Shown piece by piece: positions 5,211 to 53,663 of a stretch of DNA of 64,000 nucleotides. Source of the stretch: Bacillales bacterium UBA5348 (lineage in GTDB: Bacteria; Bacillota_I; Bacilli_A; RF39; UBA660); contig DHQC01000013.1 of NCBI GenBank assembly GCA_002411005.1, forward strand, positions 133,093 to 197,092, read 5' to 3'. The stretch's first letter is position 1, and each line of letters begins with the position of its first letter. The translations under genes were made by a program, and so were the position numbers. The notes under the pieces are model-generated. The model searched no databases. It saw nothing but the letters and a program-made list of their open reading frames with translations, and was not told the DNA's origin.

Positions 5211-5218
5211 TTTTTAAA

Positions 5219-5258
5219 AAAGAAGAGTCATAATCAAAGTATGTAATTATGACTCTTT
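5219..5258 (+). terminator. Rho-independent terminator after tig
   Basis: 12-bp stem AAGAGTCATAAT...ATTATGACTCTT followed by a T-rich tract. Confidence 0.6.
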
Positions 5259-5262
5259 ATTG

Positions 5263-5290
5263 TTGACAAAAAACCTTAAATCTATATAAT
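5263..5290 (+). promoter_or_regulatory. Sigma-A-type promoter for lon
   Basis: TTGACA (5263-5268), a 16-17-nt spacer, then TATAAT (5285-5290). Confidence 0.55.
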
Positions 5291-5370
5291 AAAGGGTATT
5301 AAAAAAAGAGGAAGAAAAATCTTTTATTATAAAAAATTAGAGCAATATAAATTCCTTGGGAGGTGCCTTA

Positions 5371-10286: not shown

Positions 10287-10391
10287 CTAATCACCTCGCA
10301 TATAAATATATTATACACCTAATAAGTTTTTTCATGTTGCAACTTTTTAATTAATGATGCATAAAATAGGTATAGATAAGGGTGTTGAGAT

Positions 10392-10712
10392 ATGAAAAAG
10401 AAATTACCAAGCATTTTTGCAAACAAGCTTGATAAAAAAATTGATAATAATGATGAAGTTTTCTACTCTGTATTAGAATATAGGAATCTTTTAGAGCATA
10501 CAGAAGAAGACCATATTGAGGATAAGAATGTTAATGATAAAATTAATGAATTATTCAATTCGGTTAATTATGTTTATAAAATGAAGGTTGCTATAACGTT
10601 AAAGGATAAAAAGGTTATAAACAAGGATATAATAGGTCAAATTGATAATAATCTTATAACAATAGATGATGAATTAATAAATATTGAGGATATTAGTGAT
10701 ATAAAGTATTAA
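10392..10712 (+). CDS. Hypothetical protein
   Basis: 106 aa acidic protein; no motif recognised. Confidence 0.35.
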   Translation: MKKKLPSIFANKLDKKIDNNDEVFYSVLEYRNLLEHTEEDHIEDKNVNDKINELFNSVNYVYKMKVAITLKDKKVINKDIIGQIDNNLITIDDELINIEDISDIKY

Positions 10713-36840: not shown

Positions 36841-38185
36841 TCAGTCCTTTTTTAAAACGTTATAATTGTGGCCACTTCTATCAACCTTATTCCATTCGTT
36901 CTTTTCGGTAAAATATGAAATAGTCCCAACTATTATAGTATATAAAATGATTATTCTATAAACAACTAAATCTAGAATTATAGTTGTAACAATCCTAATA
37001 TTATCAAGCCCTTTATATCTTACGTTGTAAAAATATGCAATAAATAGTCCGACAACATTATATGTTAAATGGACACTTATAAAGATATAAAAATATAAGG
37101 CAATATTTGATAAAGTGTTGTTCATTATATTATCAATCACAAGGATTGTAAAAACTACTATTATAAAGGAACTTAAGACACCAATAACAAGCGCATCAAC
37201 AATCATAAAAAAGGGTAGTGGTTTGGTAAGAGTGTCTTTAAATAATCTCTTTCTGAAGTTAATTAATGCTTCAATAAAGGATTTTTGCCATCTTTTTCTT
37301 TGTTTAATTAGGTCCTTAAATGTTTCTGGTCCTTCTGTATAACATATAGCCTCAGGTACATAAACTATTTTTTTATTTGTATCTTGAATATGAAATTGTA
37401 TTTTAAGAGTAAGATCCAAGTCTTCTCCGATTGTATGTGAAAACCCGCCTACATCAAGTAGTATATCTTTTCTAAAAATTCCAAAAGCTCCCGAGATAAC
37501 AAGTAACGATTCTAATTTTGCTAAAGAAGCTTTATAACAAAAACATGATTTAATATATTCAATTGCTTGTAATCTTAGTAATAGCTTTATTTTGAAGGTT
37601 GTTTTTGCCTTTTTTTGTGAAAGATTAAATGATTGTAATATTTGGATGACACCGCTAGCAGCTACGACATTTTTATCATCAAATGTTTTACTTACTAAAG
37701 ATAGAGCATCTGGTTTTAAAATACTATCAGCATCTAACGTCACAATGTATTTGTTTTTAGAATAGTTAATACCTAAATTTAAAGCATCACTTTTCCCCCC
37801 CGTTATTTTTATCTATAAGATACATATTAGGATATAACTCGGATCTGTATATACATTTCATATTATAAGAATCTAAATTGTGCCGTCTTTTTCTTTTTGT
37901 TTCTTTTAATTTTAAAATGCTTTTGAATTCCTTTAAGGTATTATCGCTCGATCCATCATTTATAAATATGCATTCAAAATTATCATATTCAATTCTTAAT
38001 AATCCTTCAATTGTATTTTTAATTATCTTTTCCTCATTATAGCAGGGAATTAGAATGGTGACAGGGCGTATTATATTTTTCTTTATATTCTTTTTTCCCC
38101 TCTTTATACTTAATAGAACATTTAAAATATGGAAAAGAGGAAAGAATATTCCGAGAAATAAAAATATTTCTAATAATAATCTCAT
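36841..38185 (-). pseudogene. Processive family-2 glycosyltransferase (IcaA/PgaC/cellulose-synthase-like), split into two ORFs by a frameshift at a G7 tract
   Basis: ORF 37787..38185 has an N-terminal TM and the PCYNEE/DGSSD motifs, ending ...KNNGGEK*. ORF 36841..37743 plus its upstream open frame reads GGKSDALNLG...TLDADS...GEDLDLT...QRKRWQKS (D,D,D,QxxRW) with 4 C-terminal TM helices. Removing one G from the coding-strand G7 run (plus-strand C7 at 37795-37801) fuses them in frame. Confidence 0.7.
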
Positions 38186-40605: not shown

Positions 40606-41474
40606 TTATTTTTCATTTTTCATTTTATAAGTTAATCCATAACCTCCAGGTCCGATATGACTAGCAATTACAGGCCCAATTTCAGTTAATATATATTTGC
40701 CGGTTATTTTTAAATTTTCAACATTTTCTTGCAATTTAACTGCACCATCTAAATTATCAGAATGTACAATTCCAATTGCATCAATATCATTTTTATCAAT
40801 TTTCGAAAGCATTCTATCTATTAATATTGAATTCATTCTTTTTGAACCTCTAACTTTTTCAACAACTTGTACTTTACCAAATTCGTCTATATTTATTAAA
40901 GGTTTTACTCTTAATAGTTGACCTAATGAGGCCGCTGTTTTTGAAATACGTCCACCATGGATAAGATAAGTTAAATCATCTACAAAAAATTCAATGTTAT
41001 AGTAGTCTTTGTATTTGTTGATATATGTGATTATTTCTTCGTAATTTTTCCCTTCTTTTTTCATATTTAAAGCCTTTAGTGCTATAAGACCTTCAGCAAG
41101 TGATCCAGTTAAAGAATCAATAACAGCTATTTTTGAATCGGGATATTTCTTTTGTAACATGTTTTTAGCGATTACGATGTTGTTATAGCTGCTACTTAAT
41201 CCAGATGAAAGACATATACAAATAATGTCATTACCTTTTGTTAGGTCTTCTTCAAAAAGCTCTACAGCTTTAGATGTGTTGACAGCAGCTGTTCTTGGCA
41301 TTGCTCCTGTCCTCATTTTATTAAAATTTCTCTCATAGTAAGATTTTTTTCATCACCATACTCAATATCTTCACCATTAAAATAGTAATATATTGGTATT
41401 GTTTTAATTTCTGGATAGTCCTTTATATTTGGAATATCTGAGCATTTGTCTACAAAAATAGAAATATCATTCAT
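40606..41474 (-). pseudogene. degV: DegV/FakB family fatty-acid-binding protein, frameshifted near an A7 tract
   Basis: The N-terminal 53 codons (MNDISIFVDKCSDIPNIKDYPEIKTIPIYYYFNGEDIEYGDEK...) run from ATG 41474 (GGTGGAGGG RBS) to a TGA at 41313-41315. The rest (ORF 40606..41316, ...SSGLSSSYNN... DegV core) is in the -1 frame. Adding one A to the coding-strand A7 run (plus T7 at 41344-41350) restores ...DEKKSYYERNFNKMRTGAMPRTAAVN... Confidence 0.6.
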
Positions 41475-41612: not shown

Positions 41613-41687
41613 TGCCTCGTAGCCAAGCGGTAAGGCATTGGACTCTGAATCCAACATGCGTTAGTTCGAACCTAACCGAGGCAGCCA
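41613..41687 (+). tRNA. tRNA-Gln (anticodon CTG)
   Basis: 75 nt cloverleaf with a U1:A72 pair, anticodon loop CTCTGAA, T-loop GTTCGAACC, and an encoded CCA. Closely resembles B. subtilis tRNA-Gln apart from C34. Confidence 0.85.
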
Positions 41688-41745
41688 TTAAGTTTTTAAT
41701 TCATCTTATAATTGGATGACTTTATTATATAGAAGGGGTGAAAAT

Positions 41746-43389
41746 ATGAATTTTGAATTATTAGCAGAATTGTTATTTCCTAATATAACAAATACTCCTG
41801 ATTATTATGAAGATAAATATCCTAAACGTAATCTTAATAAGAAGGATATAGTAGTTAGATTTGCACCAAGCCCAACAGGGTTTATTCATATGGGATCTCT
41901 TTATGTTGCATCATTAAATAGATTATTAGTTAATCAAAATCATGGGATCTATTATTTAAGAATAGAGGATACTGATCATAAAAGAGAAGTAAAAGGGGGC
42001 ATCAAATTAATTCAAGAAGCTTTAGATTATTTTTCTATTAGCTTTGACGAATCACCTTCTAAAGGTGGTGAATATGGCCCTTATATTCAATCGGAAAGAA
42101 AAGTAATATATCAAACATATATAAAAGACTTAATAAAGAAAGGTTTAGCATATCCTTGCTTTTGTACGGAGGCAGAATTAGAAAGCATTAGAGAATCACA
42201 AGTATCATCAAAGTCTAAACTTGGATATTATGGGAAATGGGCAATGGATAGAAATTTGACGTTTGACGAGATACAGCAAAGAGTTAATAATGGAAAATCA
42301 TATGTAATTAGATTAAAAACACCTAAAATAATCAATGAAAAGATAGAATGTAATGACATGATAAAGGGAAATATATATTTCCCTACAAATGATATAGATG
42401 TTGTACTATTAAAATCTGATGGCCTTCCGACATATCACTTTGCACATGTTATTGATGATTATTTAATGCGTACAACTCATGTTATTAGAGGAGATGAGTG
42501 GTTATCTTCCTTGCCAATCCATTTGCAGTTATTTTCTATGCTTGGTTTTGAATTGCCAAAATACGTGCATATTTCACCTTTAACCAAGAAAGAGGGCAAT
42601 AGTATTCGTAAATTAAGCAAGAGAAAGGACCCAGAGTCTGCTATTAGTTATTATCAAGAAAAAGGAATCCCAATAGAGGCTTTAAAGATTTATTTTGCAA
42701 ATATTACTAATTCTAATTTTGAACAATGGTATAGTCAAAATCAGAGAGCCCCTCTTACCGACTTTACTTTTACTTTTAATAAAATGCCAGTAGGTGGTAC
42801 GCTTTTTGATATAAATAAACTTAAAAATATTTGCAGACAATATTTTAGTTTGGAGAGTGCCTTAGACATTTATCTTGAATCATTAGATTATTTTAAAACT
42901 TATGATAATAGTTTTTATGAAATCTTATTAAAAAATAAAGAATATGTTATAAGTATTTTAAATATAGAAAAAGATAGACCTCGACCAAGAAAAGATATAG
43001 CTTGCTATAAAGATATAAAAGATGAGAATTGGTATATGTTTGATGAATTGTTTTATTCTAATGTTTCATATTTAAACTTGAAGGATGAGACAACATATGA
43101 CTATAATATTCTTGTTTCATATTTGTCTAACTATTTTGATATTAATGACAATGAAGTAGAGTGGTATGATCGTACAAAGTCTTTAGCTGTTCATTTTGGT
43201 TATGCCCCTGATGTGAAGAGTTATAAAGAAAATCCTAATAATTATAAAGGACATATAGGGGATATATGTGAATTAATTAGGGTTGCTATAACGGGTGAAA
43301 AACAAACCCCTAGTTTATATGAAATACAACAAATTCTAGGATTTGATAGAATAAAGGCCCGAATTGATAATTTTAAAAACTTTTTTTAA
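41746..43389 (+). CDS. gltX: Glutamate--tRNA ligase (GluRS-type class I aaRS)
   Basis: Motifs RFAPSPTGFIHMGS (HIGH region), AYPCFCTEAELE (GluRS zinc-binding knuckle), and KLSKRK (KMSKS). AAGGGGTGA RBS before ATG 41746. About 547 aa. Confidence 0.85.
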   Translation: MNFELLAELLFPNITNTPDYYEDKYPKRNLNKKDIVVRFAPSPTGFIHMGSLYVASLNRLLVNQNHGIYYLRIEDTDHKREVKGGIKLIQEALDYFSISFDESPSKGGEYGPYIQSERKVIYQTYIKDLIKKGLAYPCFCTEAELESIRESQVSSKSKLGYYGKWAMDRNLTFDEIQQRVNNGKSYVIRLKTPKIINEKIECNDMIKGNIYFPTNDIDVVLLKSDGLPTYHFAHVIDDYLMRTTHVIRGDEWLSSLPIHLQLFSMLGFELPKYVHISPLTKKEGNSIRKLSKRKDPESAISYYQEKGIPIEALKIYFANITNSNFEQWYSQNQRAPLTDFTFTFNKMPVGGTLFDINKLKNICRQYFSLESALDIYLESLDYFKTYDNSFYEILLKNKEYVISILNIEKDRPRPRKDIACYKDIKDENWYMFDELFYSNVSYLNLKDETTYDYNILVSYLSNYFDINDNEVEWYDRTKSLAVHFGYAPDVKSYKENPNNYKGHIGDICELIRVAITGEKQTPSLYEIQQILGFDRIKARIDNFKNFF

Positions 43390-43456
43390 AGAAATAGTTG
43401 TTATTTTTCGAGAAAATTATTATAATCTAATTGGTCTATTAATTTAGACCATATGT

Positions 43457-43532
43457 GACCCGTTGGTGAAATGGTTAACACGCTACCCTCTCAAGGTAGT
43501 ATTTATGGGTTCGAACCCCATACGGGTTACCA
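43457..43532 (+). tRNA. tRNA-Glu (anticodon CTC)
   Basis: 76 nt. Acceptor GACCCGT/ACGGGTT, anticodon stem CTACC/GGTAG with loop CTCTCAA, T-loop TTCGAAC, and an encoded CCA. Confidence 0.85.
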
Positions 43533-43542
43533 ATGAATATTA

Positions 43543-43566
43543 AAAGCACTTTTAGTGCTTTTTTAA
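43543..43566 (+). terminator. Terminator after tRNA-Glu
   Basis: Hairpin AGCACTtttAGTGCT followed by TTTTTT. Confidence 0.55.
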
Positions 43567-43567
43567 T

Positions 43568-43596
43568 TTGACTTTGCAAAGTTCTTACTATATAAT
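43568..43596 (+). promoter_or_regulatory. Sigma-A-type promoter for the 43638 gene
   Basis: TTGACT, a 17-nt spacer, then TATAAT. Confidence 0.55.
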
Positions 43597-43637
43597 AGCA
43601 ACCCAATTAAAACGTTTTAAAAAGGCGAGGTGATCAT

Positions 43638-45107
43638 ATGAGCTTTTATCCCTTAGAAAGATTAAAAAGTGGAAAGATTGATTTTTTATTTAATCTAACA
43701 CCATCTGATAGAAAAAGAATTATTGAAGATCTGAGAAAATCAGAAGAAAGAGAAATTATTGTGGCAGAATTTTTAAGTAAGGCAATAAAACGTTTGCCCT
43801 ACTTTTGCCTTGAAGTAATATATGATATGGATAAATATTATAATGAAACCTTTGACTTATTAAAAAAATATAAAATAGCTTTTGATGATGAAAAAATTGG
43901 TAATGTAATTAACAACACCTCTTTTGGCGAAAAATATGTATATGATAACTTGGATGAAATACTATTGAAAAACGAAGAATCAAGAATAGATATGCTAATT
44001 GATTTTGCGTATAATAAATCTGAAAATAAAGATAAATGGCTTTGTAGATTGTCAAAAAACAATAATTTGCATCAACGAGCTTTATTTATGATAAGTATAT
44101 TAAAAAAGCATCCTCAGGATTTAGCAGAAATTTATGATAATATAATTGAATATTTAACTTCCGAAAATGGTTTTGGTGATATACAATTATCTTGGTTTCC
44201 GGAAAAGATTTCGTCTAAGGATTTAAGTTTAATAACATACTTAGTATCAAAAACCAAATTAGATCGAAGTTTATATTTAGAATTAAAAGAGTATTTGTTA
44301 ACTAATTATAAAGAAAATGATTTGGCTGAAATGTTTTTAAAGAATTATCTAATTTCAAACAGAAACTTTCAAATAGATTCCAGGGAATCAGGAATGATTG
44401 AATTTAAACAAGATTCAAACAGATTATTTAAAACTTCCAGAAATTATCAACTCCGAATTTTAGAACAATATAGTGAAAACATAAGCAAAGACTTGTTAGA
44501 AAAATTCAAATATTATTTACAGTTTTTTCAAAATGAAAACGTTCCAAGATATTTATTGTCAGAAATGTTTAGTAAAGGATTAGGTTCGGATATAAGAAGA
44601 TGTATAGATATTTATTACCCTAAGAGTAAGGAACAAAGTTGTGAATTTGTTGGAAGGGGTAGTACTAGTAGTTGTTTTAGAATAGGGGATTATGTTTTAA
44701 AATTGAGTACTATAAAATGGTCTTACGAGGATGTTATTTGTCCAAATTTATATTTGATAATTAAAAATGAAGAGGAAAAATTCGTTCGCGATGATAAGGG
44801 TATTGTAAGAGCAGCCCTAGAAGTTCAAAAACACTTAAAAAGAACTGCTAAAGATCTACCTTCTGAACATTTTGTCTACTTTAATAAAGAACTTAATAGA
44901 TTGGGTTATATGTATACCGATACATTAATAAATGGAATGTGTGGAGATAATTGTATGCTTTTAGACAGTTATAAGGATGCTGATTGTTTTAATCCTGAAA
45001 GTTTACCAGAAATGTTTAAAAGGGTACCATTAGTATTAATTGATAGAGATAGAGTCTATCCTAAAAACAAAATTTATATTAAGCAATTAAGCGAAGGCCA
45101 TTCTTAA
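43638..45107 (+). CDS. Hypothetical protein: N-terminal alpha-helical domain plus C-terminal atypical protein-kinase-like domain
   Basis: The C-terminal 160 aa carry a Gly-rich loop VGRGSTSSCF, beta3 Lys context YVLKL, then ...GMCGDNCML... and ...VLIDRDR..., consistent with RIO/Kdo-type minimal kinases. Strong promoter and RBS. Confidence 0.45.
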   Translation: MSFYPLERLKSGKIDFLFNLTPSDRKRIIEDLRKSEEREIIVAEFLSKAIKRLPYFCLEVIYDMDKYYNETFDLLKKYKIAFDDEKIGNVINNTSFGEKYVYDNLDEILLKNEESRIDMLIDFAYNKSENKDKWLCRLSKNNNLHQRALFMISILKKHPQDLAEIYDNIIEYLTSENGFGDIQLSWFPEKISSKDLSLITYLVSKTKLDRSLYLELKEYLLTNYKENDLAEMFLKNYLISNRNFQIDSRESGMIEFKQDSNRLFKTSRNYQLRILEQYSENISKDLLEKFKYYLQFFQNENVPRYLLSEMFSKGLGSDIRRCIDIYYPKSKEQSCEFVGRGSTSSCFRIGDYVLKLSTIKWSYEDVICPNLYLIIKNEEEKFVRDDKGIVRAALEVQKHLKRTAKDLPSEHFVYFNKELNRLGYMYTDTLINGMCGDNCMLLDSYKDADCFNPESLPEMFKRVPLVLIDRDRVYPKNKIYIKQLSEGHS

Positions 45108-45149
45108 AACAATAAACTCTAACTAATTGTAGTTAGAGTTTATTGTTTC
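45108..45149. terminator. Bidirectional terminator (18-bp perfect stem)
   Basis: Hairpin AACAATAAACTCTAACTAattgTAGTTAGAGTTTATTGTT. Confidence 0.65.
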
Positions 45150-45610
45150 TTTAAGTCTAATAAATGTTGAATTTGCCAATTTCTTTCATCTTCCATTAAT
45201 TGAGTAACATTATCTTTATCTTTATCTTTATCTTTATTTAAATGATATATAGCTGAAACTACATACATGGCTGATCCTTCTGAATGGGTAGGGACATGGC
45301 AAGTCACTAAAGCATGGCTACAGGCCCTACAAATTTGACATGCTGCTTTATCGATTGGTTCTAATTCTCTAGCAGCGGCTAGAGCAGGATATGTGAACTT
45401 TCTAGCATCCCACATTTTCATCTCACCGTTAATCCATTTTTTTAACATATTTATTGCAGTACGAGGTCTAACCTCATTGGAATATTTATCCTCAAGTAAT
45501 GGCATATATTTTTCAACGCAATCAATTGCCCAAATAGCTAAAATCTTTTGGTCTGTTGTTTTTATTATTTCGACTAATCTAGGATCGTGCCTTAATTTTC
45601 TCATATCCAT
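45140..45610 (-). CDS. Hypothetical Cys/His-cluster protein (third gene of the DNPH1-like operon)
   Basis: 156 aa. Putative metal-binding cluster CQICRACSHALVTCHVPTH. Contains a KDKDKDKD hexanucleotide repeat. 4-nt gap to the upstream gene. Confidence 0.45.
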   Translation of the reverse strand: MDMRKLRHDPRLVEIIKTTDQKILAIWAIDCVEKYMPLLEDKYSNEVRPRTAINMLKKWINGEMKMWDARKFTYPALAAARELEPIDKAACQICRACSHALVTCHVPTHSEGSAMYVVSAIYHLNKDKDKDKDNVTQLMEDERNWQIQHLLDLKKQ

Positions 45611-45614
45611 TTTA

Positions 45615-46226
45615 TTACCTATTATTATATTGATTAATAAAATTTATTAAGCTTTGGCAAATTTTCTCAATATTATCAAAATTGTTATAATCTCTATATT
45701 TTCTATTTATTTCTATTTGTATTATATCTATATCTGTGTTGGCATAAATAAATTGTGTAATTCCGCCACCTTTAAAAGGATCATTAAATTTAATGTTTTT
45801 GATACCAGTTTCGATAAAGGCTTCTCCTAATTCTTTTGTAGTAGAATAAGCTGCAGATAAATTGTTTAAAGTTCCTATTTCAACATCAAAATCACGATTG
45901 CGATCAGCTCCGTGGATATCAATTAATAACTTAATATTATTTTCAACAATATAATCACGTAACTTATTTTTAAATTCGTCTGTTTTTAAAGAGTTGGAGT
46001 CAATCTTATTATCTTTTAATTTTATATAATATGAGCAATTTACTTGTTCTGCAACGTATTTAGCAATAGCTTTTGTAAAAGGCTCTGACTTTTTAATTAT
46101 ATTCCATTTATCCTGTTGCATAGTATGAACAGCAGTAAGTATTATTGGTATGGTCCCATTTCTCATTATATATTCTTCATTAGAATCAGATAATTCGTGA
46201 TTCATTATTTCTTGTTTAAAATTCAT
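45615..46226 (-). CDS. N-formylglutamate amidohydrolase (FGase, PF05013)-like hydrolase
   Basis: Blocks IPIILTAVHTMQ, LLIDIHGA, and IQIEINRKY match the FGase-family patterns (xxPHxG, xDxHS, xElRxdly). Confidence 0.5.
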   Translation of the reverse strand: MNFKQEIMNHELSDSNEEYIMRNGTIPIILTAVHTMQQDKWNIIKKSEPFTKAIAKYVAEQVNCSYYIKLKDNKIDSNSLKTDEFKNKLRDYIVENNIKLLIDIHGADRNRDFDVEIGTLNNLSAAYSTTKELGEAFIETGIKNIKFNDPFKGGGITQFIYANTDIDIIQIEINRKYRDYNNFDNIEKICQSLINFINQYNNR

Positions 46227-46239
46227 CTTATCACCTATA

Positions 46240-46659
46240 TTAACTTAAATCGTTAGTAAATTTATTAATTATTTTCTGTGCCTCTTCTATATTGTTATAT
46301 GGATAAACACTTAAATATTTATTTCCATTTCTCATTGCAGAAATTTTATTGCCATTATTTTTGTATAGACATAATATTGGTTTGTTTAATTTTTCGGCGT
46401 AACATATTTCATAACCAACACCTAATGATGGATTTGTTACCTCTGCAACAACAAAATCAGATTCATCAATCCAACTACAATCTCTTTGGAAAATGTATTC
46501 GTCAGTTTTATTATTTTCTCCTGAAGAATTTAAATTTTTATCCCCAATATGTTCTGTTAATACGACAAAATTATTTTTTAGATATTTAATTATTTCAAAA
46601 TATTCATCAACAAAATCCCTGCCACCTCTTATTGAACCTGAAAAATATACTTTTCTCAC
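46240..46659 (-). CDS. DNPH1/Rcl-like 2'-deoxynucleoside 5'-phosphate N-hydrolase (nucleoside 2-deoxyribosyltransferase superfamily)
   Basis: VYFSGSIRGGRD...VVLTEH...FVVAEVTNPSLGVGYEICYA parallels DNPH1 IYFCGSIRGGRED...VLTEH...VVVAEVTQPSLGVGYELGRA. GTG start with GAGGTGATAA RBS. A terminator and TATAAT -10 lie just upstream. Confidence 0.65.
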   Translation of the reverse strand: MRKVYFSGSIRGGRDFVDEYFEIIKYLKNNFVVLTEHIGDKNLNSSGENNKTDEYIFQRDCSWIDESDFVVAEVTNPSLGVGYEICYAEKLNKPILCLYKNNGNKISAMRNGNKYLSVYPYNNIEEAQKIINKFTNDLS

Positions 46660-46746
46660 CTTATCACCTCATTACAATATTATAGCATAAAAAAGTACCG
46701 TTACCGGTACTTTACTCACACTGCTTTGTTTTGTATGTCAACATAA

Positions 46747-47574
46747 TTACCGTGTCTCTTTTTTTATTAATTTAGCATGTAAAACAACTTTATCATCCTC
46801 ATTATAACAAGTAGATAAAGTTAATATATTATCACTAGCATTAACAGAGGTATTGAAATTATAAGAACTTCGATTTAATAATGTACTGAGAAAGGTTTGA
46901 TATTCATTTTCACTTCTAAATTCAGTTTGAATATAATCGCTAGTAGTAGGAATGTGATAAACACTAAATACTTGCCACAATGTATTTTCATATTCGGTTG
47001 ATAATTTTACAACATAATTATTATCATTTTTAAGCCATCCACTTTTTAATATATTCTTTAATGAACCAAACATTGTTGTGTCAATTCTTCCATGTGCGTA
47101 TATAATTGTATTCTTATCTGTTCCATCTAACTTATTTCTATAATCTGAAAATACCCATCCTGCTTCATTATAACTTTTATCAAATGTATGATTTAAATAG
47201 TATTTATTATCTTTAGTTTGAACAAAGGGATAATTTATATTAGTCCCATTAACTTGTATCCATCCCATTGTATGATTATTAGTTTCTTTTAAATCAGTAA
47301 AATTAACATTTATCATATTCATTTTTATGTAATCCCAATAAGGATTAAATTTAGGAATTACTTCCACTTGTTCTATTATCTCGGTATTTTCGGTGTCACT
47401 AATTTCTTTAATAACAATTTCCTCGTGTATTTTCTCAATTTGAATTTCAGTTTCATGTGAATCAAACTTCCACTTTAGAATATTGAATAATGAAATAATA
47501 AAAAAGATAAAGCATACGATAAAAACAATTAAAATAATACTGTTTTTTAATTTATATTTTGTTTTTTTCTTCAA
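46747..47574 (-). CDS. srtB: Class B sortase
   Basis: N-terminal TM anchor, YPFVQTKDNKYYLNH, and catalytic TLSTC. Confidence 0.8.
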   Translation of the reverse strand: MKKKTKYKLKNSIILIVFIVCFIFFIISLFNILKWKFDSHETEIQIEKIHEEIVIKEISDTENTEIIEQVEVIPKFNPYWDYIKMNMINVNFTDLKETNNHTMGWIQVNGTNINYPFVQTKDNKYYLNHTFDKSYNEAGWVFSDYRNKLDGTDKNTIIYAHGRIDTTMFGSLKNILKSGWLKNDNNYVVKLSTEYENTLWQVFSVYHIPTTSDYIQTEFRSENEYQTFLSTLLNRSSYNFNTSVNASDNILTLSTCYNEDDKVVLHAKLIKKETR

Positions 47575-47711
47575 ATCATATCACGTCCATTATCATTATA
47601 CTATTTTTTTGTGAAAAATTAAAAAATATTAACTAAATGATAAAAATGTGCTATACTTGATTAAAGTAAGATAGTAAAAATAAGTTACTTACTTTGAAAG
47701 AGAGGAGAAAA

Positions 47712-49172
47712 ATGAAAGGGATTAAAATGTTTGCATGTGCACTTGTTGGATTTATGGGTTTTGGAATAATGAGTGTTAATGCATTAGAGGTAAGTGAAAC
47801 ATTTGAAAAAGTATTTCCAAATGGAGAACTTGAAACTTATTCAGTTCCATTTAAAAATATAAATGATCAATGGGTTTTTCTTGATTGGTCTTTCGCAAAT
47901 AATCCTGGTAGTAAAGAATTACCTGCCGGATATGGAGCTTCAATCAGTGATTGTGATGAAAATTGGGTTTGTACAGGGACAATTGGAGAAAGCTGCTCGA
48001 GTCCTGAAGAATGTGCAATAGCATTTAACGAATCTCATAGTGTTAAATTAGTTTTTAATGAATACGACAGGGAAATTGACAAAACAGTAAGTCAGTTAGT
48101 TAAAAAAATAGCAGACGGATCAACTTTTGAAAATATTAAATATTATAATTTAACTGATTTAAATTTAGTGAATTATTATGCTTCAATAAATGATACTGAA
48201 GACGCAATGGATTTAGATAAATCTATCAATTATACTACTGAATTGAAAAAGGATTTCAATAATAGTAATCTTACTTATACTTTTAGTGCAAGAATGGGAG
48301 ATAATTATCCACTTTATTCTTCATTAGGTGGGATATTTGTTGTATATCATAATGGTATTGCATATGGATATGTAGATCCAATTGGAATTCAAAATGCAAA
48401 TGTTATATATGTTCCAACTGATACTGTAACTACTACTGATGCATATATTGCTGCCGCAAAAGAAAGAATAAAAGGATATTTGGGTTATGATGTAGAAATT
48501 ATAGCAGGTGGTAAAAGAGTCACTTTAAAGGTATATCCTGATGATCCTGAATCTGAAAGTTACGATTTTACAAAACTTGGCGATGAAACCTTGATGGGAG
48601 ATTATTACTACAATGTAAAACTTAATGGTAATATATATCAATTTGTTATTATTAGAGATTCTAGTAAAATGCAATCTCCAGAGTATAAATCAGTAGATTT
48701 AAAATCAAATATTGCTGTATCTTCTAATAATGGAACAATTCCGCTTGATGCAAATATCAATACAACAATAATTACTAAAACAGATGATTACAAAATAAAA
48801 GTAAATTCAGATAATGTTTATGTTGTTGATATACAATTGAAGTCAGCATTGAAAACAGATTATATTGCTAAACTAGATAATGGTAAATATTTAGTTAGTA
48901 TTCCAGTACCGGAAAATCTAAACGGTAAAGAAATAATTGCTTATTATATTACAAGTACAGGTGAAAAAGAAGAGCATGTTGTAACAGTAAAAGATGGTTT
49001 TGCATCTTTTGAAACTGATCACTTTAGTACATATATATTAGCAGAAAAAGCAACTTTAACTGAAACTAATCCTCAAACATTTGACGGGGTCATAAATTAT
49101 TTTATTATTGGTATAGTAAGTTTAATTGGACTTCTAGGAACAGGATTATATTTAAGAAAAAGAAATAATTAA
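47712..49172 (+). CDS. Cell-wall-anchored surface protein with NPQT sorting signal (SrtB substrate candidate)
   Basis: Signal peptide. C-terminus ...TNPQTFDGV, a hydrophobic stretch, then LRKRNN. AGAGGAG RBS before ATG 47712. Confidence 0.7.
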   Translation: MKGIKMFACALVGFMGFGIMSVNALEVSETFEKVFPNGELETYSVPFKNINDQWVFLDWSFANNPGSKELPAGYGASISDCDENWVCTGTIGESCSSPEECAIAFNESHSVKLVFNEYDREIDKTVSQLVKKIADGSTFENIKYYNLTDLNLVNYYASINDTEDAMDLDKSINYTTELKKDFNNSNLTYTFSARMGDNYPLYSSLGGIFVVYHNGIAYGYVDPIGIQNANVIYVPTDTVTTTDAYIAAAKERIKGYLGYDVEIIAGGKRVTLKVYPDDPESESYDFTKLGDETLMGDYYYNVKLNGNIYQFVIIRDSSKMQSPEYKSVDLKSNIAVSSNNGTIPLDANINTTIITKTDDYKIKVNSDNVYVVDIQLKSALKTDYIAKLDNGKYLVSIPVPENLNGKEIIAYYITSTGEKEEHVVTVKDGFASFETDHFSTYILAEKATLTETNPQTFDGVINYFIIGIVSLIGLLGTGLYLRKRNN

Positions 49173-49525
49173 AAAAGTTATATTATGAGAATTCACAATT
49201 TGTGAGTTCTTTTTTGTTGACACCTTATTTACTATAGAATAAGTGAATATGCATTTGCTCAGATTGATATAATTGAAAAGTATGCAGTCGAAATTGTTTT
49301 AGGATTCAATGTTGTAAGACCTTATCTTGTTGGAGCTTCAGATGTTGGTGCTTTTGCTTTTGTAACTCTTGGGGACTTCTCCTTACATTGTAACCTCAAT
49401 AAAACCCCCGCTTTAACTTTAGCTGATGCCTATGCCTTATATGAAAATAATCTTGATAGAATTCGCCTATCGTAAAGATTGATACTTAATCTACTTTATT
49501 ATTTGTCTACTATATGGGGTACTTA

Positions 49526-49848
49526 TTCAAAAGGAACTAGGTTTTAAAATAAACACCATTCAAACTGATAACGGTAGTGAGTTTGTAAATAATTAAGAAG
49601 AAACAAAAGAATTAAAGAGATTATGTATTAAACATAAAAGAAAAAGACCATATTCACCTTGGCAAAATGGAAAGGTTGAAAGAAGTCATAGAATGGATAC
49701 AGAAAGATTTTATAATAAGCATGAATTTGCATCTGAAGAAGATTTAATGAAGAAAGTAAAGAGATATGAATCTAGATATAATAACATTTCAAGAAAAGTA
49801 TTAGGATTCAAATCCCTTAATGAAATAGTAGAACAATATTTAATTTAA
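49526..49848 (+). mobile_element. Transposase remnant (rve/DDE integrase C-terminal part, IS481/IS3-like) with an internal stop; no intact IS
   Basis: The frame reads ...LGFKINTIQTDNGSEFVNN*EETKELKRLCIKHKRKRPYSPWQNGKVERSHRMDTERFYNKHEF...RKVLGFKSLNEI, i.e. the TDNGSEF ... PYSPxxNGKVER block of retroviral-type integrase cores. No N-terminal half and no inverted repeats were found. Confidence 0.6.
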
Positions 49849-50037
49849 TATATCAGAGCTATTTATTTTTATAAAAAGTGTGACATATGATTGATTTCTC
49901 TAGAAAAAAATTATAAAAAAGAAATTTTTATGAAGAATTATGTCAAACTTTATGTTAAAATAAGTATGAGGATAGATAAAATTAAGTAGTACATTTAAGC
50001 AGTAAGTAGTAAAAATCTTATCGAAAGGGGAAATACT

Positions 50038-50436
50038 ATGAAAAAGTTTAAATTTTTTGCGATGATTTTAGGCCTATCATTCGGTTTAACCGCAATGGGT
50101 GTAAATGCCTGGACTTATAAACCCTTTGGGATCTTATTTGAAAACTGGGGAACCCAAACTATTAATACCGCATATGCAGACAAAGAAACAGATATAGCAC
50201 AAAAATGGGAAACTCTTGAAGTTTCAAATGGTGGAAACCCTGAAGTTGTGTTACAAGGCAAAACGCTTGGCTCTGTAAGTGATAATGGTTGGAGAGTTTA
50301 TTTATGGAATGGACAAGCATACGAATGGTCTACATACCTTTCAAAACTCGATTCAGAAGATTATAGATTGCAATTTAAAAAGAATGGTTGGACAATTGGA
50401 ATGACTAATGTCACCGGTTTTTGGTGGAAATATTAA
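50038..50436 (+). CDS. Secreted Trp-rich small protein (bacteriocin-like candidate)
   Basis: Sec signal MKKFKFFAMILGLSFGLTAMGVNA; the 108-aa mature part has 11 Trp and ends ...GFWWKY. Immediately upstream of a LanFEG-like ABC transporter. Confidence 0.45.
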   Translation: MKKFKFFAMILGLSFGLTAMGVNAWTYKPFGILFENWGTQTINTAYADKETDIAQKWETLEVSNGGNPEVVLQGKTLGSVSDNGWRVYLWNGQAYEWSTYLSKLDSEDYRLQFKKNGWTIGMTNVTGFWWKY

Positions 50437-50521
50437 TCCAAGTAACAACTAATAGAATATAAGTAGTATGAATAATAATATAAAAATTTTATCTACTCTC
50501 TATTTTTTATTAGGAGGTAAT

Positions 50522-51304
50522 ATGAAAAATAGCAAAAAAAATATTTGTCTTTTTGTAATTTCGGTAGTGGCTTCAATCATAATGGTATTTTTATCCATTA
50601 ATTCACAATATCCCGATGGTTTAGGTATGGACAGAGCACCATTTGATTATGCTTGGTTTGATGTGTATGTTTATACAAGCTCGACATTTTTAGTTGTAGC
50701 AACATTGATTCTAATATTATCATGTAAAAAAATTCATGATTTATATCATTCTGGAATGATAAAAAATATGATTCAACGAGAAACAATTAGTAATATTAAG
50801 AAAAACCTTTTGGCAAATACGTGGTTAAGTGGTCTTTTCCTTTATCCTGTATTTCTGATACTTACATATATTATTTGTTTTATTGTTTTTCCTACTAGAG
50901 GTGCAGGAATAAACATCGGTCCAGATGGACCAATGTATAATTCACTTTTAATTCTTCTTAAATCTTGTGTAATAACAATAATATATTCAATCATTGTTTT
51001 CAACGTCACATTAATAGTGTCTAAAAAAATGAAGAGTTTTGCAGTTACAACAATTTTATCTTTTATAATAATTTTGATTTATTCAGCGATTTCTCAACTA
51101 ATTTTTGTTAACATTTTTAAAACATTTTTATCGGAACAATTCGCCAAAGGATTTGATTTAATTAATGGTTTAATATTTGGGTTTGGAAGCACTATATCAA
51201 TTTTAATACATGGATTCATTTTAGTAATTATAACCACCTTAATTTTAAATAAGATTTATAAGGATACTAATGAAGTTGTTTTGAATTATGAAAATCAAAA
51301 CTAA
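50522..51304 (+). CDS. ABC-2-type permease-like membrane protein (1 of 3)
   Basis: About 6 TM helices. AGGAGGT RBS before ATG 50522. Confidence 0.5.
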   Translation: MKNSKKNICLFVISVVASIIMVFLSINSQYPDGLGMDRAPFDYAWFDVYVYTSSTFLVVATLILILSCKKIHDLYHSGMIKNMIQRETISNIKKNLLANTWLSGLFLYPVFLILTYIICFIVFPTRGAGINIGPDGPMYNSLLILLKSCVITIIYSIIVFNVTLIVSKKMKSFAVTTILSFIIILIYSAISQLIFVNIFKTFLSEQFAKGFDLINGLIFGFGSTISILIHGFILVIITTLILNKIYKDTNEVVLNYENQN

Positions 51305-51998
51305 TGAAAAAATGCTATATGATGAAATAACGAGTAATAAAATACTAACAATAACAGCAATATTTATTACTGCCGTTATATTCACAATAGCTTATACAAA
51401 TGGATTAAAAGGTTCTAATTACTTTGAATTTATAAATGAAATATTTGTTAGTGTACCTTATTGTAGTTTGATTACAATAATTTCTGGGTTACTTATAAAC
51501 TTAATCATATTTAGAAGTTTTCTAGGGAATAATTTGTTAGAACAAAGGTTTAAATCAAAAAAAGATTTATTTAATTATATATTAAAATTCTATTTAAAAA
51601 TATTGTTTATAGTTCTAGGATTTATAATCTTTGCTGTTATGATATTTTCTAATTTATTTTCCCATTTCAATTTGGTTTTTATTACTGATGGAAATATAAA
51701 CGAAAATATTATATTCATATTTATAAATTTATATTTGACTTTGATAAATATTACAATATGGTTTTTAATAAGTTATGTTATATTGAAATTAATTAATGAT
51801 AAATTAGGCATTATAATTGTTGTTTTTATAGCACTATATCAATATGTAAGTCCGACAATATTTAATATTAATATAATGTTTCCATATGTGAATACTTATA
51901 ATAATTTATGGATATTGTTGCTGACTCCAATCTTTATATTTATATTATATAAATTATCAATGATTATATATACTAAACAGAATTGGAAGATTAGATAA
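51288..51998 (+). CDS. ABC-2-type permease-like membrane protein (2 of 3)
   Basis: 236 aa, about 6 TM helices. Overlaps the neighbouring gene. Confidence 0.5.
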   Translation: MKIKTNEKMLYDEITSNKILTITAIFITAVIFTIAYTNGLKGSNYFEFINEIFVSVPYCSLITIISGLLINLIIFRSFLGNNLLEQRFKSKKDLFNYILKFYLKILFIVLGFIIFAVMIFSNLFSHFNLVFITDGNINENIIFIFINLYLTLINITIWFLISYVILKLINDKLGIIIVVFIALYQYVSPTIFNINIMFPYVNTYNNLWILLLTPIFIFILYKLSMIIYTKQNWKIR

Positions 51999-52760
51999 AT
52001 GAAATCAATGATATATAGAGATTTGTTATTGTTTGTTAAGAAAAATTATAAGATTTTAATTTTTATAATTCTATTGTTAGTATTGAAAACAATATTTAAT
52101 TATAATGATTTTATCAATGCAACAAATTCTGTTGATAATTCAGATAATTTATCGCAAAACAATGTAATCGATTTAACTCCATTTGTTTATACAGAAAACC
52201 TGTTTTTTGAAAGATCTTTGGGACTAACGTATGATATAGATGGGATTATTGAAATCATATATATGTGTTTAATTATATCGTTATACATATATGTAGCAGT
52301 TTCAGTTTATTTTTCAGATATAGCTTCAGCACCAGAACAATTGTTTTTGAGAATGAACAAAAAAAAATACGTAATGCAAAAACTTATATCTATTACAGCA
52401 ATAAGTATTTTAATAGATGTAATACTATATTTATCTCTCTTTATAACACTTTCTGCATTAAATGTAAGCTATTTTAATTTTGAATTGCTGTTTGTTAATA
52501 TATTTTATAAAATAATTCTGCAGTTTATAGTAATTGCTTTGTTTGGTTATATAAGCATATACTCATATTTTGTTGTTCTAGGATTACTATTGTCAATTTT
52601 GACATTTAAAATTAAGTATCTATATTTTTTGTTTCCAAGTGGAGTAAAGTTTGATATCTATATAGTCATAGTTTTTATAATAATTTCTATGTTTACATAT
52701 TGGATATGCCACAAGAAAATAATAAGTCTTTTCAGAAAGGAGAAAATGTATGGAATATAA
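51999..52760 (+). CDS. ABC-2-type permease-like membrane protein (3 of 3)
   Basis: 253 aa, about 6 TM helices. Abuts the previous gene. Confidence 0.5.
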   Translation: MKSMIYRDLLLFVKKNYKILIFIILLLVLKTIFNYNDFINATNSVDNSDNLSQNNVIDLTPFVYTENLFFERSLGLTYDIDGIIEIIYMCLIISLYIYVAVSVYFSDIASAPEQLFLRMNKKKYVMQKLISITAISILIDVILYLSLFITLSALNVSYFNFELLFVNIFYKIILQFIVIALFGYISIYSYFVVLGLLLSILTFKIKYLYFLFPSGVKFDIYIVIVFIIISMFTYWICHKKIISLFRKEKMYGI

Positions 52761-53388
52761 AATTGAAGTAAAAGATTTGAACTTAACTATAAATTCACAT
52801 GAAATCCTAAAAAATATTAATTTAAACATTGAATCTGGAAAAATATATGGTTTTATCGGACGAAATGGTAGTGGGAAAAGCATGCTTCTTAAATGTATAT
52901 GTGGATTACTTAAACCGAATACAGGGAGTGTTATTGTTAACAATGAAGACATTTATAAAAAAGACGTGTTTCCAAGTAGTATGAGAGCTTTTATTGACAA
53001 ACCAACATTTATAGGATCTTTAACAGGATATGAGAATTTAGAATTATTAGCTGATATACAAAATATTATAGATGATGAAAAAATTAAAGATACTCTTATA
53101 AAGTGTGATTTAGAAGATCAAATAAATAAAAAATATGGCAAATATTCACTTGGAATGAAACAAAAACTAGCGATTGCTAGTGTCTTGATGGAAAATCCAG
53201 ATATTATGATATTTGACGAACCATTTAATGGAATTGATAATAAAAGTGTTGAAATGATTAGAAAGATAATTCTAGAAGAAAAACAACAGGGAAAAACAAT
53301 TTTGATTGCAACACATATAAAAGAAGATATAGACTTATTATGTGACGTTATATATGAATTGGATTTAGGTCAAATAATCGGCAAGTAA
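52750..53388 (+). CDS. ABC transporter ATP-binding protein (LanF-like)
   Basis: Walker A GRNGSGKS, signature LGMKQKL, and Walker B MIFDEP. Confidence 0.8.
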   Translation: MEYKIEVKDLNLTINSHEILKNINLNIESGKIYGFIGRNGSGKSMLLKCICGLLKPNTGSVIVNNEDIYKKDVFPSSMRAFIDKPTFIGSLTGYENLELLADIQNIIDDEKIKDTLIKCDLEDQINKKYGKYSLGMKQKLAIASVLMENPDIMIFDEPFNGIDNKSVEMIRKIILEEKQQGKTILIATHIKEDIDLLCDVIYELDLGQIIGK

Positions 53389-53589
53389 CAATAATATAGA
53401 TATTTAATTTTAAATATGATCGTGTTTATTTGCAAAATATTTAACTTATTAGAAAATTAGTAATTACTTAAGAAAAATCATTGTCTTAATTCTTTCAGAC
53501 TGTTGGTAAAAACCAATGGTCTTTTTTTAAAAAAAACGTAAAAAATATAAAAAAATTTAACAAAATATTGCTAAATTTTTAATTTTTCT

Positions 53590-53663
53590 TGGCAGGGGCA
53601 GTAGGAGTTGAACCCACATTAACGGTTTTGGAGACCGTCATTCTACCATTGAAATATGCCCCT
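53590..53663 (-). tRNA. tRNA-Trp (anticodon CCA)
   Basis: The reverse complement gives AGGGGCATATTTCAATGGTAGAATGACGGTCTCCAAAACCGTTAATGTGGGTTCAACTCCTACTGCCCCTGCCA. Near-identical architecture to B. subtilis tRNA-Trp. Confidence 0.85.

Follow-up and report, generated by a model that had tools for sequence, protein, structure and literature searches.

The window (the whole 64,000-nucleotide stretch of DNA that was analysed) contains three closely spaced minus-strand genes, denoted A, B and C in the order in which they would be transcribed, which lie between a tRNA-Glu and a tRNA-Trp gene. The features referred to throughout are as follows.

46240-46659, minus strand: gene A, 139 aa; putative DNPH1-type 2′-deoxynucleoside 5′-phosphate N-hydrolase, assigned by homology
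45615-46226, minus strand: gene B, 203 aa; putative FGase/PghP-fold amidohydrolase, probably metal-dependent
45140-45610, minus strand: gene C, 156 aa; Imm5_like all-α protein with the predicted fold of SsdAI (deaminase-toxin immunity)
46692-46713, minus strand: hairpin and U-run from the terminator scan, which terminates the upstream srtB and forms the 5′ boundary of the A-B-C unit
46665-46687, minus strand: putative promoter and ribosome-binding site (RBS) of the A-B-C unit, read directly from the sequence
45106-45149, minus strand: 20-bp perfect hairpin followed by UUUU, identified by folding; predicted 3′ terminator of the A-B-C unit
43638-45107, plus strand: convergent 489-aa ORF of an uncharacterised family, within the variable segment and outside the operon
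43457-43532, plus strand: tRNA-Glu(CTC), one edge of the hypervariable segment (ARAGORN and Rfam)
53590-53663, minus strand: tRNA-Trp(CCA), the other edge of the hypervariable segment (ARAGORN and Rfam)

The ORFs and the gaps between them (13 nt between A and B, 4 nt between B and C) confirm the compact three-gene minus-strand operon described in the first-pass annotation, and the terminator-then-promoter arrangement that it placed upstream was also found: the hairpin at 46692-46713, which folds at -16.4 kcal/mol (z -4.6), is followed by a putative extended -10 element of gene A (TGCTATAAT, 46679-46687, as read from the sequence) and by its RBS (GAGGTG, 46665-46670), with a GTG start codon 5 nt further on. 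In the corresponding locus of a sister species, L096, gene A is likewise preceded by a hairpin, a -10 element and an RBS in this arrangement (TGTTATAAT ... GAGGTGA ... ATG); promoter-like matches as a class show no enrichment over shuffles in the AT-rich DNA of the window. The 3′ hairpin at 45106-45149 was detected by folding, having been missed by the pattern-based terminator scan; it folds at -24.2 kcal/mol (z -8.9), with none of 200 shuffles equally good, and is common to the A-B-C unit and the convergent 489-aa ORF. The layout predicts that A, B and C are probably co-transcribed as a single unit. A riboswitch or other RNA element controlling the operon was considered and rejected, as Rfam finds only four tRNAs in the window and the leader is only ~12 nt.

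DNPH1 is a 2′-deoxynucleoside 5′-phosphate N-hydrolase, also named 5-hydroxymethyl-dUMP N-hydrolase. The earlier description of gene A as a clear DNPH1/Rcl homologue is borne out by its match to PF05014 (Nuc_deoxyrib_tr; 2.6e-13, 50.6 bits, cut-off 28.8) and by alignments over nearly the whole length with rat Rcl/DNPH1 (4fyh; 2.5e-26) and human DNPH1 (9e-24), with its motifs intact; all of its significant PDB matches are DNPH1/Rcl entries. In human DNPH1, a Tyr/Asp/Glu catalytic triad (Y24, D80 and E104) is supported by a helper pair (E55 and H56), whilst the phosphate-binding serines (S98 and S128′) separate the nucleotide hydrolases from the nucleoside 2-deoxyribosyltransferases (PMC10603095). 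Residues Y5, E36, H37, D60, S78, E84 and S107 of gene A are invariant across 20 homologues and correspond, respectively, to human Y24, E55, H56, D80, S98, E104 and S128, the numbering having been transferred by way of shared motifs which were themselves aligned with rat Rcl. The triad (Y5, D60, E84), the Glu-His helper (E36, H37) and both phosphate serines, S78 (within PSLGVGYE) and S107 (within SAM), are present. Judged by these alignments, gene A is homologous to DNPH1 and has lost none of the catalytic or phosphate-binding residues, and a dNMP or hmdUMP N-glycosidase activity can be predicted for it by homology. The absence of the catalytic Glu/Tyr residues had been named beforehand as evidence against the first-pass proposal; both are present in the gene A alignment, and the residue-loss objection therefore fails.

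The recurrent neighbours of gene A relatives are tmk, glyA, thyA and dut (each in 3-6 of 80 loci), and the presence of these genes beside some DNPH1 homologues favours an ancient function in the metabolism of deoxypyrimidines. Searches of PHROGs gave gene A weak nucleotide-metabolism matches only, and PADLOC returned a marginal match to its ThsB TIR-like model (2.4e-4), which we take to be a distant fold-level similarity and not membership. A nucleoside-antibiotic cluster built around a MilB/BlsM-type nucleotide hydrolase found no support, there being no biosynthetic genes within ~10 kb on either side of the operon. A ~140-aa ORF that precedes gene A in L096 and in two further loci, L098 and L181, was considered as a conserved upstream partner and rejected: it is absent from the window, and the L181 protein is unrelated to those of L096 and L098, which look membrane-type.

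For gene B, the claimed PF05013 (FGase-family) hydrolase assignment lies above the Pfam cut-off, albeit marginally (31.9 bits against 28.9, with only residues 99-176 aligned), and the fold search agrees with it. Profile searches of B and C against PDB sequences gave nothing informative, and the fold assignment of gene B therefore came from the fold search. Its predicted model (pLDDT 94) was matched by Foldseek to FGase (2q7s, TM 0.71), PghP (3a9l, TM 0.64) and Atu2144 (2odf, TM 0.62-0.63) with a probability of 1.00, and residues H34, D/E48, D103, H105, E172 and R178 persist through a family alignment of 68 sequences in which identity falls as low as 20%. The predicted model places gene B among the FGase/PghP-fold hydrolases as a distant member; it is probably metal-dependent, judging from the conserved residues.

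Assignment of gene B as a PghP was rejected: its PF05908 (PghP) score of 20.5 bits falls under the cut-off of 22, and the family has no phage or prophage association, being essentially absent from IMG/VR viral contigs (one partial 35-residue match only). The ten neighbour families that recur most often (top clusters across 74 gene B loci) include no histidine-utilisation (hut) gene, and none was found in the window; the recurrent neighbours of gene B relatives are a ComEC-like MBL protein, YhcG, ABC-F, SpoU methylase, LepA and Tag. The marginal FGase match, the sub-threshold PghP score, the lack of hut context and the viral absence together indicate that the substrate is probably neither N-formylglutamate nor poly-γ-glutamate. 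The only PHROG match of gene B is to a family of unknown function (1.6e-3), and PADLOC gave a marginal type II methyltransferase match (4.2e-3).

SsdAI is the immunity protein of SsdA, a type VI secretion system (T6SS) DYW-like cytosine deaminase toxin acting on ssDNA (PDB 7jtu chain B). Gene C, reported earlier as a protein with a Cys/His cluster, is a member of the Imm5_like family rather than an unclassified Cys/His protein: it matches PF21805 over residues 15-151 (1.5e-31, 109.4 bits, cut-off 25), a membership that had been overlooked. The residues of the cluster are present, but its 'CxxCxxC' part is not conserved among relatives; the conserved set, which is invariant or nearly so, consists of D30, C31, S98, H99, C104, H105 and H109. 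The predicted structure has an all-α fold as in SsdAI, which is both its best structural match and a deaminase-toxin immunity protein proven by experiment, and this similarity suggests a putative immunity role for gene C. Relatives share 54-83% identity across Bacilli and Clostridia, and a dN/dS of 0.09 indicates strong purifying selection. Gene C is unusually well conserved, with an invariant Cys/His set.

The near-invariance of D30-C31, S98-H99, C104-H105 and H109, the low dN/dS and the conservation across Bacilli and Clostridia would also be expected if gene C were a conserved metal-binding or housekeeping Firmicutes protein merely sharing the SsdAI/DUF416 helical fold, and its solitary setting favours the same reading, as no toxin-type Pfam domain was found among its neighbours in the window or in seven other contexts examined. 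However, Pfam defines the family as Imm5-like, the immunity function of the protein that gene C best matches in structure has been demonstrated by experiment, and gene C is dispensable in L098, a strain of the same species; immunity genes that stand alone and immunity loci without toxins are, moreover, an already known pattern (PMC3482391). We consider a role outside immunity to be unlikely. A polymorphic toxin-immunity pair within the unit was rejected as well, because the genes upstream of C (DNPH1-type and FGase-fold) are without toxin or trafficking domains; C is also lost in L098, where A and B remain.

Comparison with close relatives reveals how the unit varies. Loci L098, L099 and L100 belong to the same species as the window (flanks 99.7% identical) and have A (96%) and B (94%) intact, with gene C truncated at both ends, its start codon gone via a 45-nt deletion and its last ~10 codons lost. 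Between tRNA-Glu and tRNA-Trp, the triad block is 92.7% identical to the same-species strain and carries three indels, as compared with 99.7% identity for the flanks. The boundaries are abrupt: the window and L098 are 99.66% identical as far as position 43586, where the identity breaks, and 99.8% identical from 53589 outward. The tRNA-Glu–tRNA-Trp stretch is thus hypervariable within the species, and is probably recombination-prone. This conclusion is drawn from the strain comparison and not from composition, since GC content is 0.26-0.30 throughout and neither the GC nor the skew profile has an anomaly at the locus; of the 'tRNA-bounded island' proposed for this region, the variable segment between tRNAs stands, whereas a compositional signal does not. 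Within-species hypervariability is typical of accessory or conflict loci.

The convergent 489-aa ORF is absent from L098, where its deletion also took the 3′ end of gene C. It has no match in Pfam, NCBIfam, PADLOC, PHROGs or the PDB, and its family numbers 164 representatives in a library of 1.84 billion proteins. A phage or plasmid origin was rejected, as the 10-kb variable segment matches nothing in phage or plasmid collections; the weak PHROGs matches of gene A and the near absence of the gene B family from IMG/VR bear on the same question.

The immediate clade is represented by ~5 lineages, as MAGs or metagenome contigs in which linked copies, and not genome-wide presence, were scored. In the sister species (L096) the stop codon of A is followed after 6 nt by the start of C, with B exactly absent. 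L094 has the order B, DUF488, a 352-aa gene and C, with no A, and its B and C relatives adjoin Abi_2, a Dam-type methyltransferase and SieB; L181 has A alone. The A-B, B-C and A-B-C adjacencies are each missing in at least one close relative, whilst the A-C adjacency persists in two clade species, those of the window and L096.

Co-conservation of the triad had been set beforehand as a test, and the three genes are not co-conserved outside the species, their homologues standing in unrelated contexts. Gene A was found near gene B relatives in none of 76 genome loci, 72 of which have flanks on both sides long enough to reveal an adjacent gene; gene C occurs in one of the 76, at a distance of 4 kb and four genes. 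Neither B nor C was found near gene A relatives in 80 metagenome loci (tblastn for both, and a profile HMM for B), 63 of them with at least 700 nt of downstream sequence, and neither A nor B adjoins gene C relatives in any of seven contexts (54-79% identity). The recurrent neighbours of A and of B elsewhere are unrelated to the triad. The literature searched contains no description of the A-B-C combination, in agreement with the first-pass statement that no described system has it.

The failure of co-conservation from all three sides tells against the proposal that A, B and C form one functional system, whether it acted against phages by depleting dNMPs, carried out nucleoside-antibiotic-like chemistry, or served a specialised salvage or detoxification pathway. 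The operon architecture, the location in a segment that is hypervariable within the species, and the weak ThsB TIR-like match of gene A are each consistent with such a system, but that match is marginal, L098-L100 retain A and B whole whilst C has lost both of its ends, L096 lacks B, and the combination is undescribed in the literature searched. There are also no defence or biosynthetic genes beside the locus. PADLOC, run on A, B, C, the 489-aa ORF and ten neighbours, gave only marginal or generic matches; the flanking genes scanned (the ten and the 489-aa ORF) include no defence gene, and the genes flanking the operon are of cell-envelope, tRNA-synthetase and transporter types. An anti-phage defence system or island was rejected on the basis of these marginal matches, the lack of defence neighbours and the non-conservation of the module, and we regard a single A-B-C system of any kind as extremely improbable.

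A two-step nucleotide pathway formed by A and B, with B deacylating or deformylating before or after cleavage by A and C as a passenger, would account for the 13-nt gap between the two genes and for both being intact in the window and in L098-L100. A possible second instance is offered by the Nanosyncoccus locus L069, in which a distant Nuc_deoxyrib_tr-like ORF lies ~0.5 kb upstream of a gene B relative. This ORF was rejected as a second A-B pair, since it has neither the DNPH1 phosphate loop nor the TEH motif and scores below the Pfam cut-off; an opposite-strand ORF also separates it from B. The reciprocal surveys (0 of 76 and 0 of 80), the clean absence of B in L096, the absence of A near B in L094 and L015, and recurrent B neighbours that are not nucleotide-metabolism genes also weigh against the pathway, which we consider improbable.

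The direct succession of A and C in L096 and their shared operon in the window raise a further possibility, that A and C work as a pair and B is a passenger, the two being either toxin (A) and immunity protein (C) or a joint anti-deaminase countermeasure. The immunity-protein fold of gene C is in keeping with such a pairing, and dUMP is reported to be a slow-reacting substrate of human DNPH1 (PMC10483697). Because C is truncated in L098-L100 with A intact, however, C is not an essential immunity against A; C is found in none of the 80 gene A loci and A in none of the seven gene C contexts, gene A is a plain 139-aa enzyme with no domain for secretion or trafficking, and common descent can explain why the two genes adjoin in two related species. 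We consider this pairing very improbable. An equally slight chance is given to the more specific proposals that, in this genus-level clade and with B optional, an SsdAI-like C would neutralise a DYW-type DNA deaminase whilst A would clear deaminated or aberrant dNMPs, or, separately, that Imm5_like, with its invariant Cys/His set, is a family of conserved metalloproteins and not of immunity proteins. Were the countermeasure real, it would place a module against interbacterial deaminase toxins in a hypervariable, recombination-prone chromosomal segment.

It is likely, in our assessment, that the locus is a single transcription unit stringing together three functionally independent genes, whose adjacency reflects local gene-order history within a genus-level clade and no shared pathway. 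Gaps of 13 and 4 nt, with one promoter and one terminator, are also what a functional operon could be expected to show. The dN/dS values (0.25 for A, calculated against L096, 0.21 for B and 0.09 for C) indicate that A, B and C are each functional independently of the others. What is established here comprises the ORFs, their family and fold assignments, the residue conservation and the absence of co-conservation, and the triad looks like an ordinary, lineage-specific juxtaposition, by local chance, of three known gene types.

In the mechanism that we propose for three independent genes, gene A would cleave the N-glycosidic bond of 2′-deoxynucleoside 5′-monophosphates via a covalent deoxyribosyl-Glu84 intermediate, with Asp60 protonating the leaving base, Glu36-His37 assisting, and Ser78 and Ser107′ holding the phosphate; its role would be dNMP catabolism or nucleotide-pool sanitation. 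Gene B would be a distant FGase/PghP zinc amidohydrolase with a conserved His/acid/His/Glu set, most likely hydrolysing an amide bond. Gene C would most likely be an orphan protein of immunity type, binding and so blocking a DYW-like deaminase toxin that competing bacteria deliver. The unit as a whole would sit, as three separate functions, in the recombination-prone tRNA-Glu–tRNA-Trp segment of an uncultured low-GC Bacilli genome.

Each of A, B and C is a further member of a catalogued family, and the 'system' fails the conservation test. Tight spacing and a common promoter in a small AT-rich genome are no evidence of shared function, and an operon seen in a single genome needs a neighbourhood check before it is named a system. 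Three minor observations on the individual families may be of use: bacterial and CPR DNPH1 homologues retain the complete catalytic apparatus of the human enzyme, a drug target, a ~203-aa FGase-fold family is spread in Bacilli and related gut and anaerobe lineages, and Imm5_like proteins in Firmicutes are strikingly conserved and toxin-less.

The three genes can be compared with known proteins as follows. Gene C shares 13% identity with SsdAI and differs from it in coming from Gram-positive, T6SS-less organisms and in having no toxin-type Pfam domain next door, either in the window or in the relatives examined; with the DUF416 structures (3f7c, 2q9r) its identity is only 8-15%, and a sequence relationship is undetectable. 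Gene B has, in its predicted model, the same fold as the FGase family (PF05013; 2q7s, 2odf) and PghP (3a9l), and its conserved His, acidic residue, Asp-x-His and Glu are, going by conservation, putative counterparts of the residues expected in FGase/PghP-type hydrolases; it shares only 12-14% identity with the solved structures. Gene A has the YF.GSIRGGR loop, the TEH element, the RD motif, PSLGVGYE and SAM in common with DNPH1/Rcl (PDB 4fyh, 2khz, 8os9, 9da1). It differs from these proteins in being bacterial and in comprising no more than the 139-aa core, the extensions that eukaryotic proteins have at both termini being absent, and its DNPH1-type relatives in other prokaryotic lineages adjoin tmk, thyA, glyA and dut rather than B or C.

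Three minus-strand genes, here A, B and C (together the triad), occupy 45140–46659, and their description in the first-pass annotation as a compact, separately bounded unit is upheld by the reading frames, by gaps of 13 nt (A–B) and 4 nt (B–C), and by hairpins at both ends.

The triad and the gene upstream of it
46747–47574, minus strand: class B sortase gene srtB, upstream of the triad (TIGR03064, 4.2e-50)
46240–46659, minus strand: gene A, DNPH1-like, ORF of 139 aa, GTG start
45615–46226, minus strand: gene B, FGase-family, ORF of 203 aa
45140–45610, minus strand: gene C, Imm5_like, ORF of 156 aa

The sortase gene is closed by a hairpin at 46692–46713 (−16.4 kcal/mol; z −4.6), directly 3′ of which the sequence reads TGCTATAAT (an extended −10), GAGGTG and the GTG start codon of gene A; the same order of hairpin, −10 and RBS precedes the gene A orthologue in L096, a locus from a sister species. 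A perfect 20-bp hairpin 3′ of gene C (45106–45149; −24.2 kcal/mol; z −8.9) serves both the operon and a convergent 489-aa ORF. We infer that the triad is co-transcribed.

Gene A is, as had been claimed, a DNPH1/Rcl homologue, matching PF05014 (2.6e-13), rat Rcl/DNPH1 (2.5e-26) and human DNPH1 (9e-24). Structural studies of human DNPH1 have identified a Y24/D80/E104 triad, the helper pair E55-H56 and the phosphate-binding residues S98 and S128′ (PMC10603095), whose counterparts in gene A, by shared motif, are Y5, D60, E84, E36-H37, S78 and S107. These are invariant in 20/20 homologues (identity down to 50%; the set includes CPR bacteria and one nanoarchaeon), so the catalytic residues give no ground for rejecting the assignment; with the catalytic and phosphate-binding positions all retained, gene A very probably encodes an active dNMP N-glycosidase. 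At 80 metagenomic loci (L101–L180), gene A relatives adjoin thymidylate kinase (6/80), SHMT (5/80), thymidylate synthase (5/80) and dUTPase (3/80), neighbours which hint at a housekeeping role of prokaryotic DNPH1 homologues in deoxypyrimidine metabolism.

The assignment of gene B to the FGase-family hydrolases also stands, on a narrow pass of the FGase Pfam model (31.9 bits, cut-off 28.9, residues 99–176 only) and on fold matches; the PghP Pfam model falls just under its cut-off. The structural model (pLDDT 94) matches phage PghP (3a9l), FGase (2q7s) and Atu2144 (2odf), with TM-scores of 0.62–0.71 at 12–14% identity. H34, an acidic residue at 48, D103-x-H105, E172 and R178 are kept in 68 family members (identity down to 20%), the pattern that an intact hydrolase site of the FGase/PghP family would show. 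Relatives of gene B adjoin assorted housekeeping genes (ComEC-like MBL protein, YhcG, ABC-F, SpoU methylase, LepA, Tag).

Gene C, previously treated as an unclassified Cys/His protein, belongs to Pfam Imm5_like (109 bits; 1.5e-31), and its model is all-alpha (pLDDT 93.6). The CxxCxxC motif noted earlier is not conserved; the conserved set is D30-C31, S98-H99, C104-H105 and H109, within which the invariant Cys/His residues of the family (C31, H99, C104, H105 and H109, window numbering) might, to judge from the alignment, form a metal site. Imm5 was first defined as the family of immunity proteins against DYW deaminase and CdiA-CT toxins, and immunity genes or loci lacking a toxin are a recognised pattern (PMC3482391); for SsdA, a DYW-like ssDNA deaminase toxin, SsdAI has been shown by experiment to be the immunity protein (PMC7901873). 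One Bacilli MAG (L001) carries two Imm5_like paralogues (5001–5474 and 10316–10474) ~5 kb apart, separated by a PPDK-like gene and a SAM synthetase; an AbiEii gene lies close by.

The proposal that the triad constitutes a novel three-gene system is not borne out, since the genes are not co-conserved elsewhere, whether approached from A, B or C, and their linkages are broken in close relatives. Co-occurrence was scored at loci; the relatives surveyed are all MAGs or metagenome contigs, and the immediate clade is sparsely sampled. Neither B nor C was found at the 80 gene A loci (0/80; tblastn for both, profile HMM for B), 63 of which have at least 700 nt downstream. Among 76 gene B loci from species-representative genomes (72 with flanks on both sides long enough for an adjacent gene), gene A occurs within 6 kb at none, and gene C at L018 only. 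Gene C relatives (54–79% identity) were found in seven contexts unrelated to one another, none of which has A or B adjacent (0/7); at L015, the same place as L018, a gene B orthologue lies four genes from the gene C relative. Clustering of neighbours at the A and B loci gave no recurrent partner resembling the triad.

One weak candidate A–B pair, in a Nanosyncoccus (Saccharibacteria) MAG (L069, 5085–6603), was rejected. There, the gene A profile matches an ORF lying ~0.5 kb 5′ of a gene B relative; this ORF retains the catalytic-Glu motif, but is a distant Nuc_deoxyrib_tr-like protein without the DNPH1 phosphate loop or TEH motif; an opposite-strand 159-aa ORF, flavodoxin-like by look, separates it from B.

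Triad genes in close relatives
L098, L099, L100 (same species, flanks 99.7–99.8% identical): A and B intact, at 96% and 94%; both ends of C truncated
L096 (sister species; A 77%, C 82%): C starts 6 nt after the stop of A; B exactly absent
L094 (B 67%, C 78%): B, DUF488, a 352-aa gene, C; no A
L181 (1.49-Mb genome; A 67%): A alone

In L098, C has lost its start codon and first codons to a 45-nt deletion, so that the first in-frame start left is Met36; a second deletion, between the imperfect short repeats TTGGCAAATTCAA / TTTGCAAAGTCAA, took the last ~10 codons of C along with the entire 489-aa ORF. Assembly error is an unlikely cause of the truncation, since L098, L099 and L100 are separate assemblies with a common gene layout and L100 has the same breakpoints against the window as L098. 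The loss of C while A and B remain intact argues against C as an essential antidote to either. Over longer distances, purifying selection acts on each gene separately, with dN/dS of 0.25 (A), 0.21 (B) and 0.09 (C).

A functional pair restricted to this clade might still be read from L096, where A and C occupy the same position as in the window, beside tRNA-Glu and gltX, or from the intact A and B of L098, and the Imm5_like family might have a metal-binding role other than immunity; we regard these alternatives, even taken jointly, as improbable. In L094 (1–8765), the B and C orthologues directly follow Abi_2, a Dam-type methyltransferase with a partner gene, and SieB, the sole defence-like neighbourhood among the contexts examined.

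The tRNA-bounded island of the first-pass annotation survives in part: strain comparison reveals a variable segment between two tRNAs, but its base composition is flat, no defence genes occur among the flanking genes scanned, and it matches no plasmid or phage record.

Edges and indels of the variable segment
43457–43532: tRNA-Glu(CTC), one edge, directly downstream of gltX
53590–53663: tRNA-Trp, other edge
Window 43587–45166: indel, missing in L098
Window 49242–53588: indel, missing in L098
L098 4793–5910: indel, two genes for apparent membrane proteins, missing in the window

Outside the tRNAs the window and L098 are 99.7–99.8% identical; between them (43533–53589), identity drops to 97.0% in the srtB block and 92.7% in the triad block. 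Values of dS are 0.003 for gltX, 0.025 for A, 0.084 for C, 0.095 for B and 0.21 for srtB, the contrast between srtB and adjacent gltX suggesting recombinational import. Given the identity drop, the three indels and the raised dS, the segment is hypervariable within the species and recombination-prone; small genes can thus be shuffled in and out, and a functional link between them is not needed.

The 489-aa ORF (43638–45107, plus strand) gave no sequence match in Pfam, NCBIfam, PADLOC, PHROG or PDB, and its small, uncharacterised family numbers 164 representatives among 1.84 billion proteins, most of them full-length (460–500 aa). srtB is divergent from a gene for a 492-aa protein (47694–49172, plus strand), a likely SrtB substrate given its C-terminal NPQTF, hydrophobic stretch and RKRNN; the two form the most divergent block between these otherwise near-identical strains. 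The strain-specific 4.3-kb insert adjoining tRNA-Trp (49242–53588) holds a 51-aa ORF (49693–49848) resembling, by eye, a transposase C-terminal fragment, a 132-aa ORF, three hydrophobic ORFs with the look of polytopic membrane proteins, and a gene for an ABC ATPase (52750–53388).

Beyond the segment, gltX (41613–43532 region) encodes a GluRS-type class I synthetase, with tRNA-Gln(CTG) directly upstream. A one-base difference in a T homopolymer (T4 in the window; L098 has T5 and an intact 289-aa gene) divides DegV (40606–41474, minus strand) into ORFs of 53 and 236 aa, through either a true frameshift or a mistake in assembly; L012 and L013, two further contigs that carry the identical operon, have the same 53-aa ORF. 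At a G7 homopolymer near 37790, a family-2 glycosyltransferase (36841–38185, minus strand) breaks into ORFs of 132 and 300 aa; the split may reflect phase variation, a pseudogene or an assembly error.

We therefore favour three independent genes: the locus would be a lineage-specific, probably co-transcribed string in which A is a putative DNPH1-type nucleotide-pool or catabolic hydrolase, B a predicted FGase/PghP-fold amidohydrolase, and C a candidate orphan immunity-type protein (Imm5_like/SsdAI-like). The literature searched describes no system combining the DNPH1, FGase and Imm5_like families, and the conservation data point to the absence of such a system rather than to an oversight; A, B and C are new members of known families.
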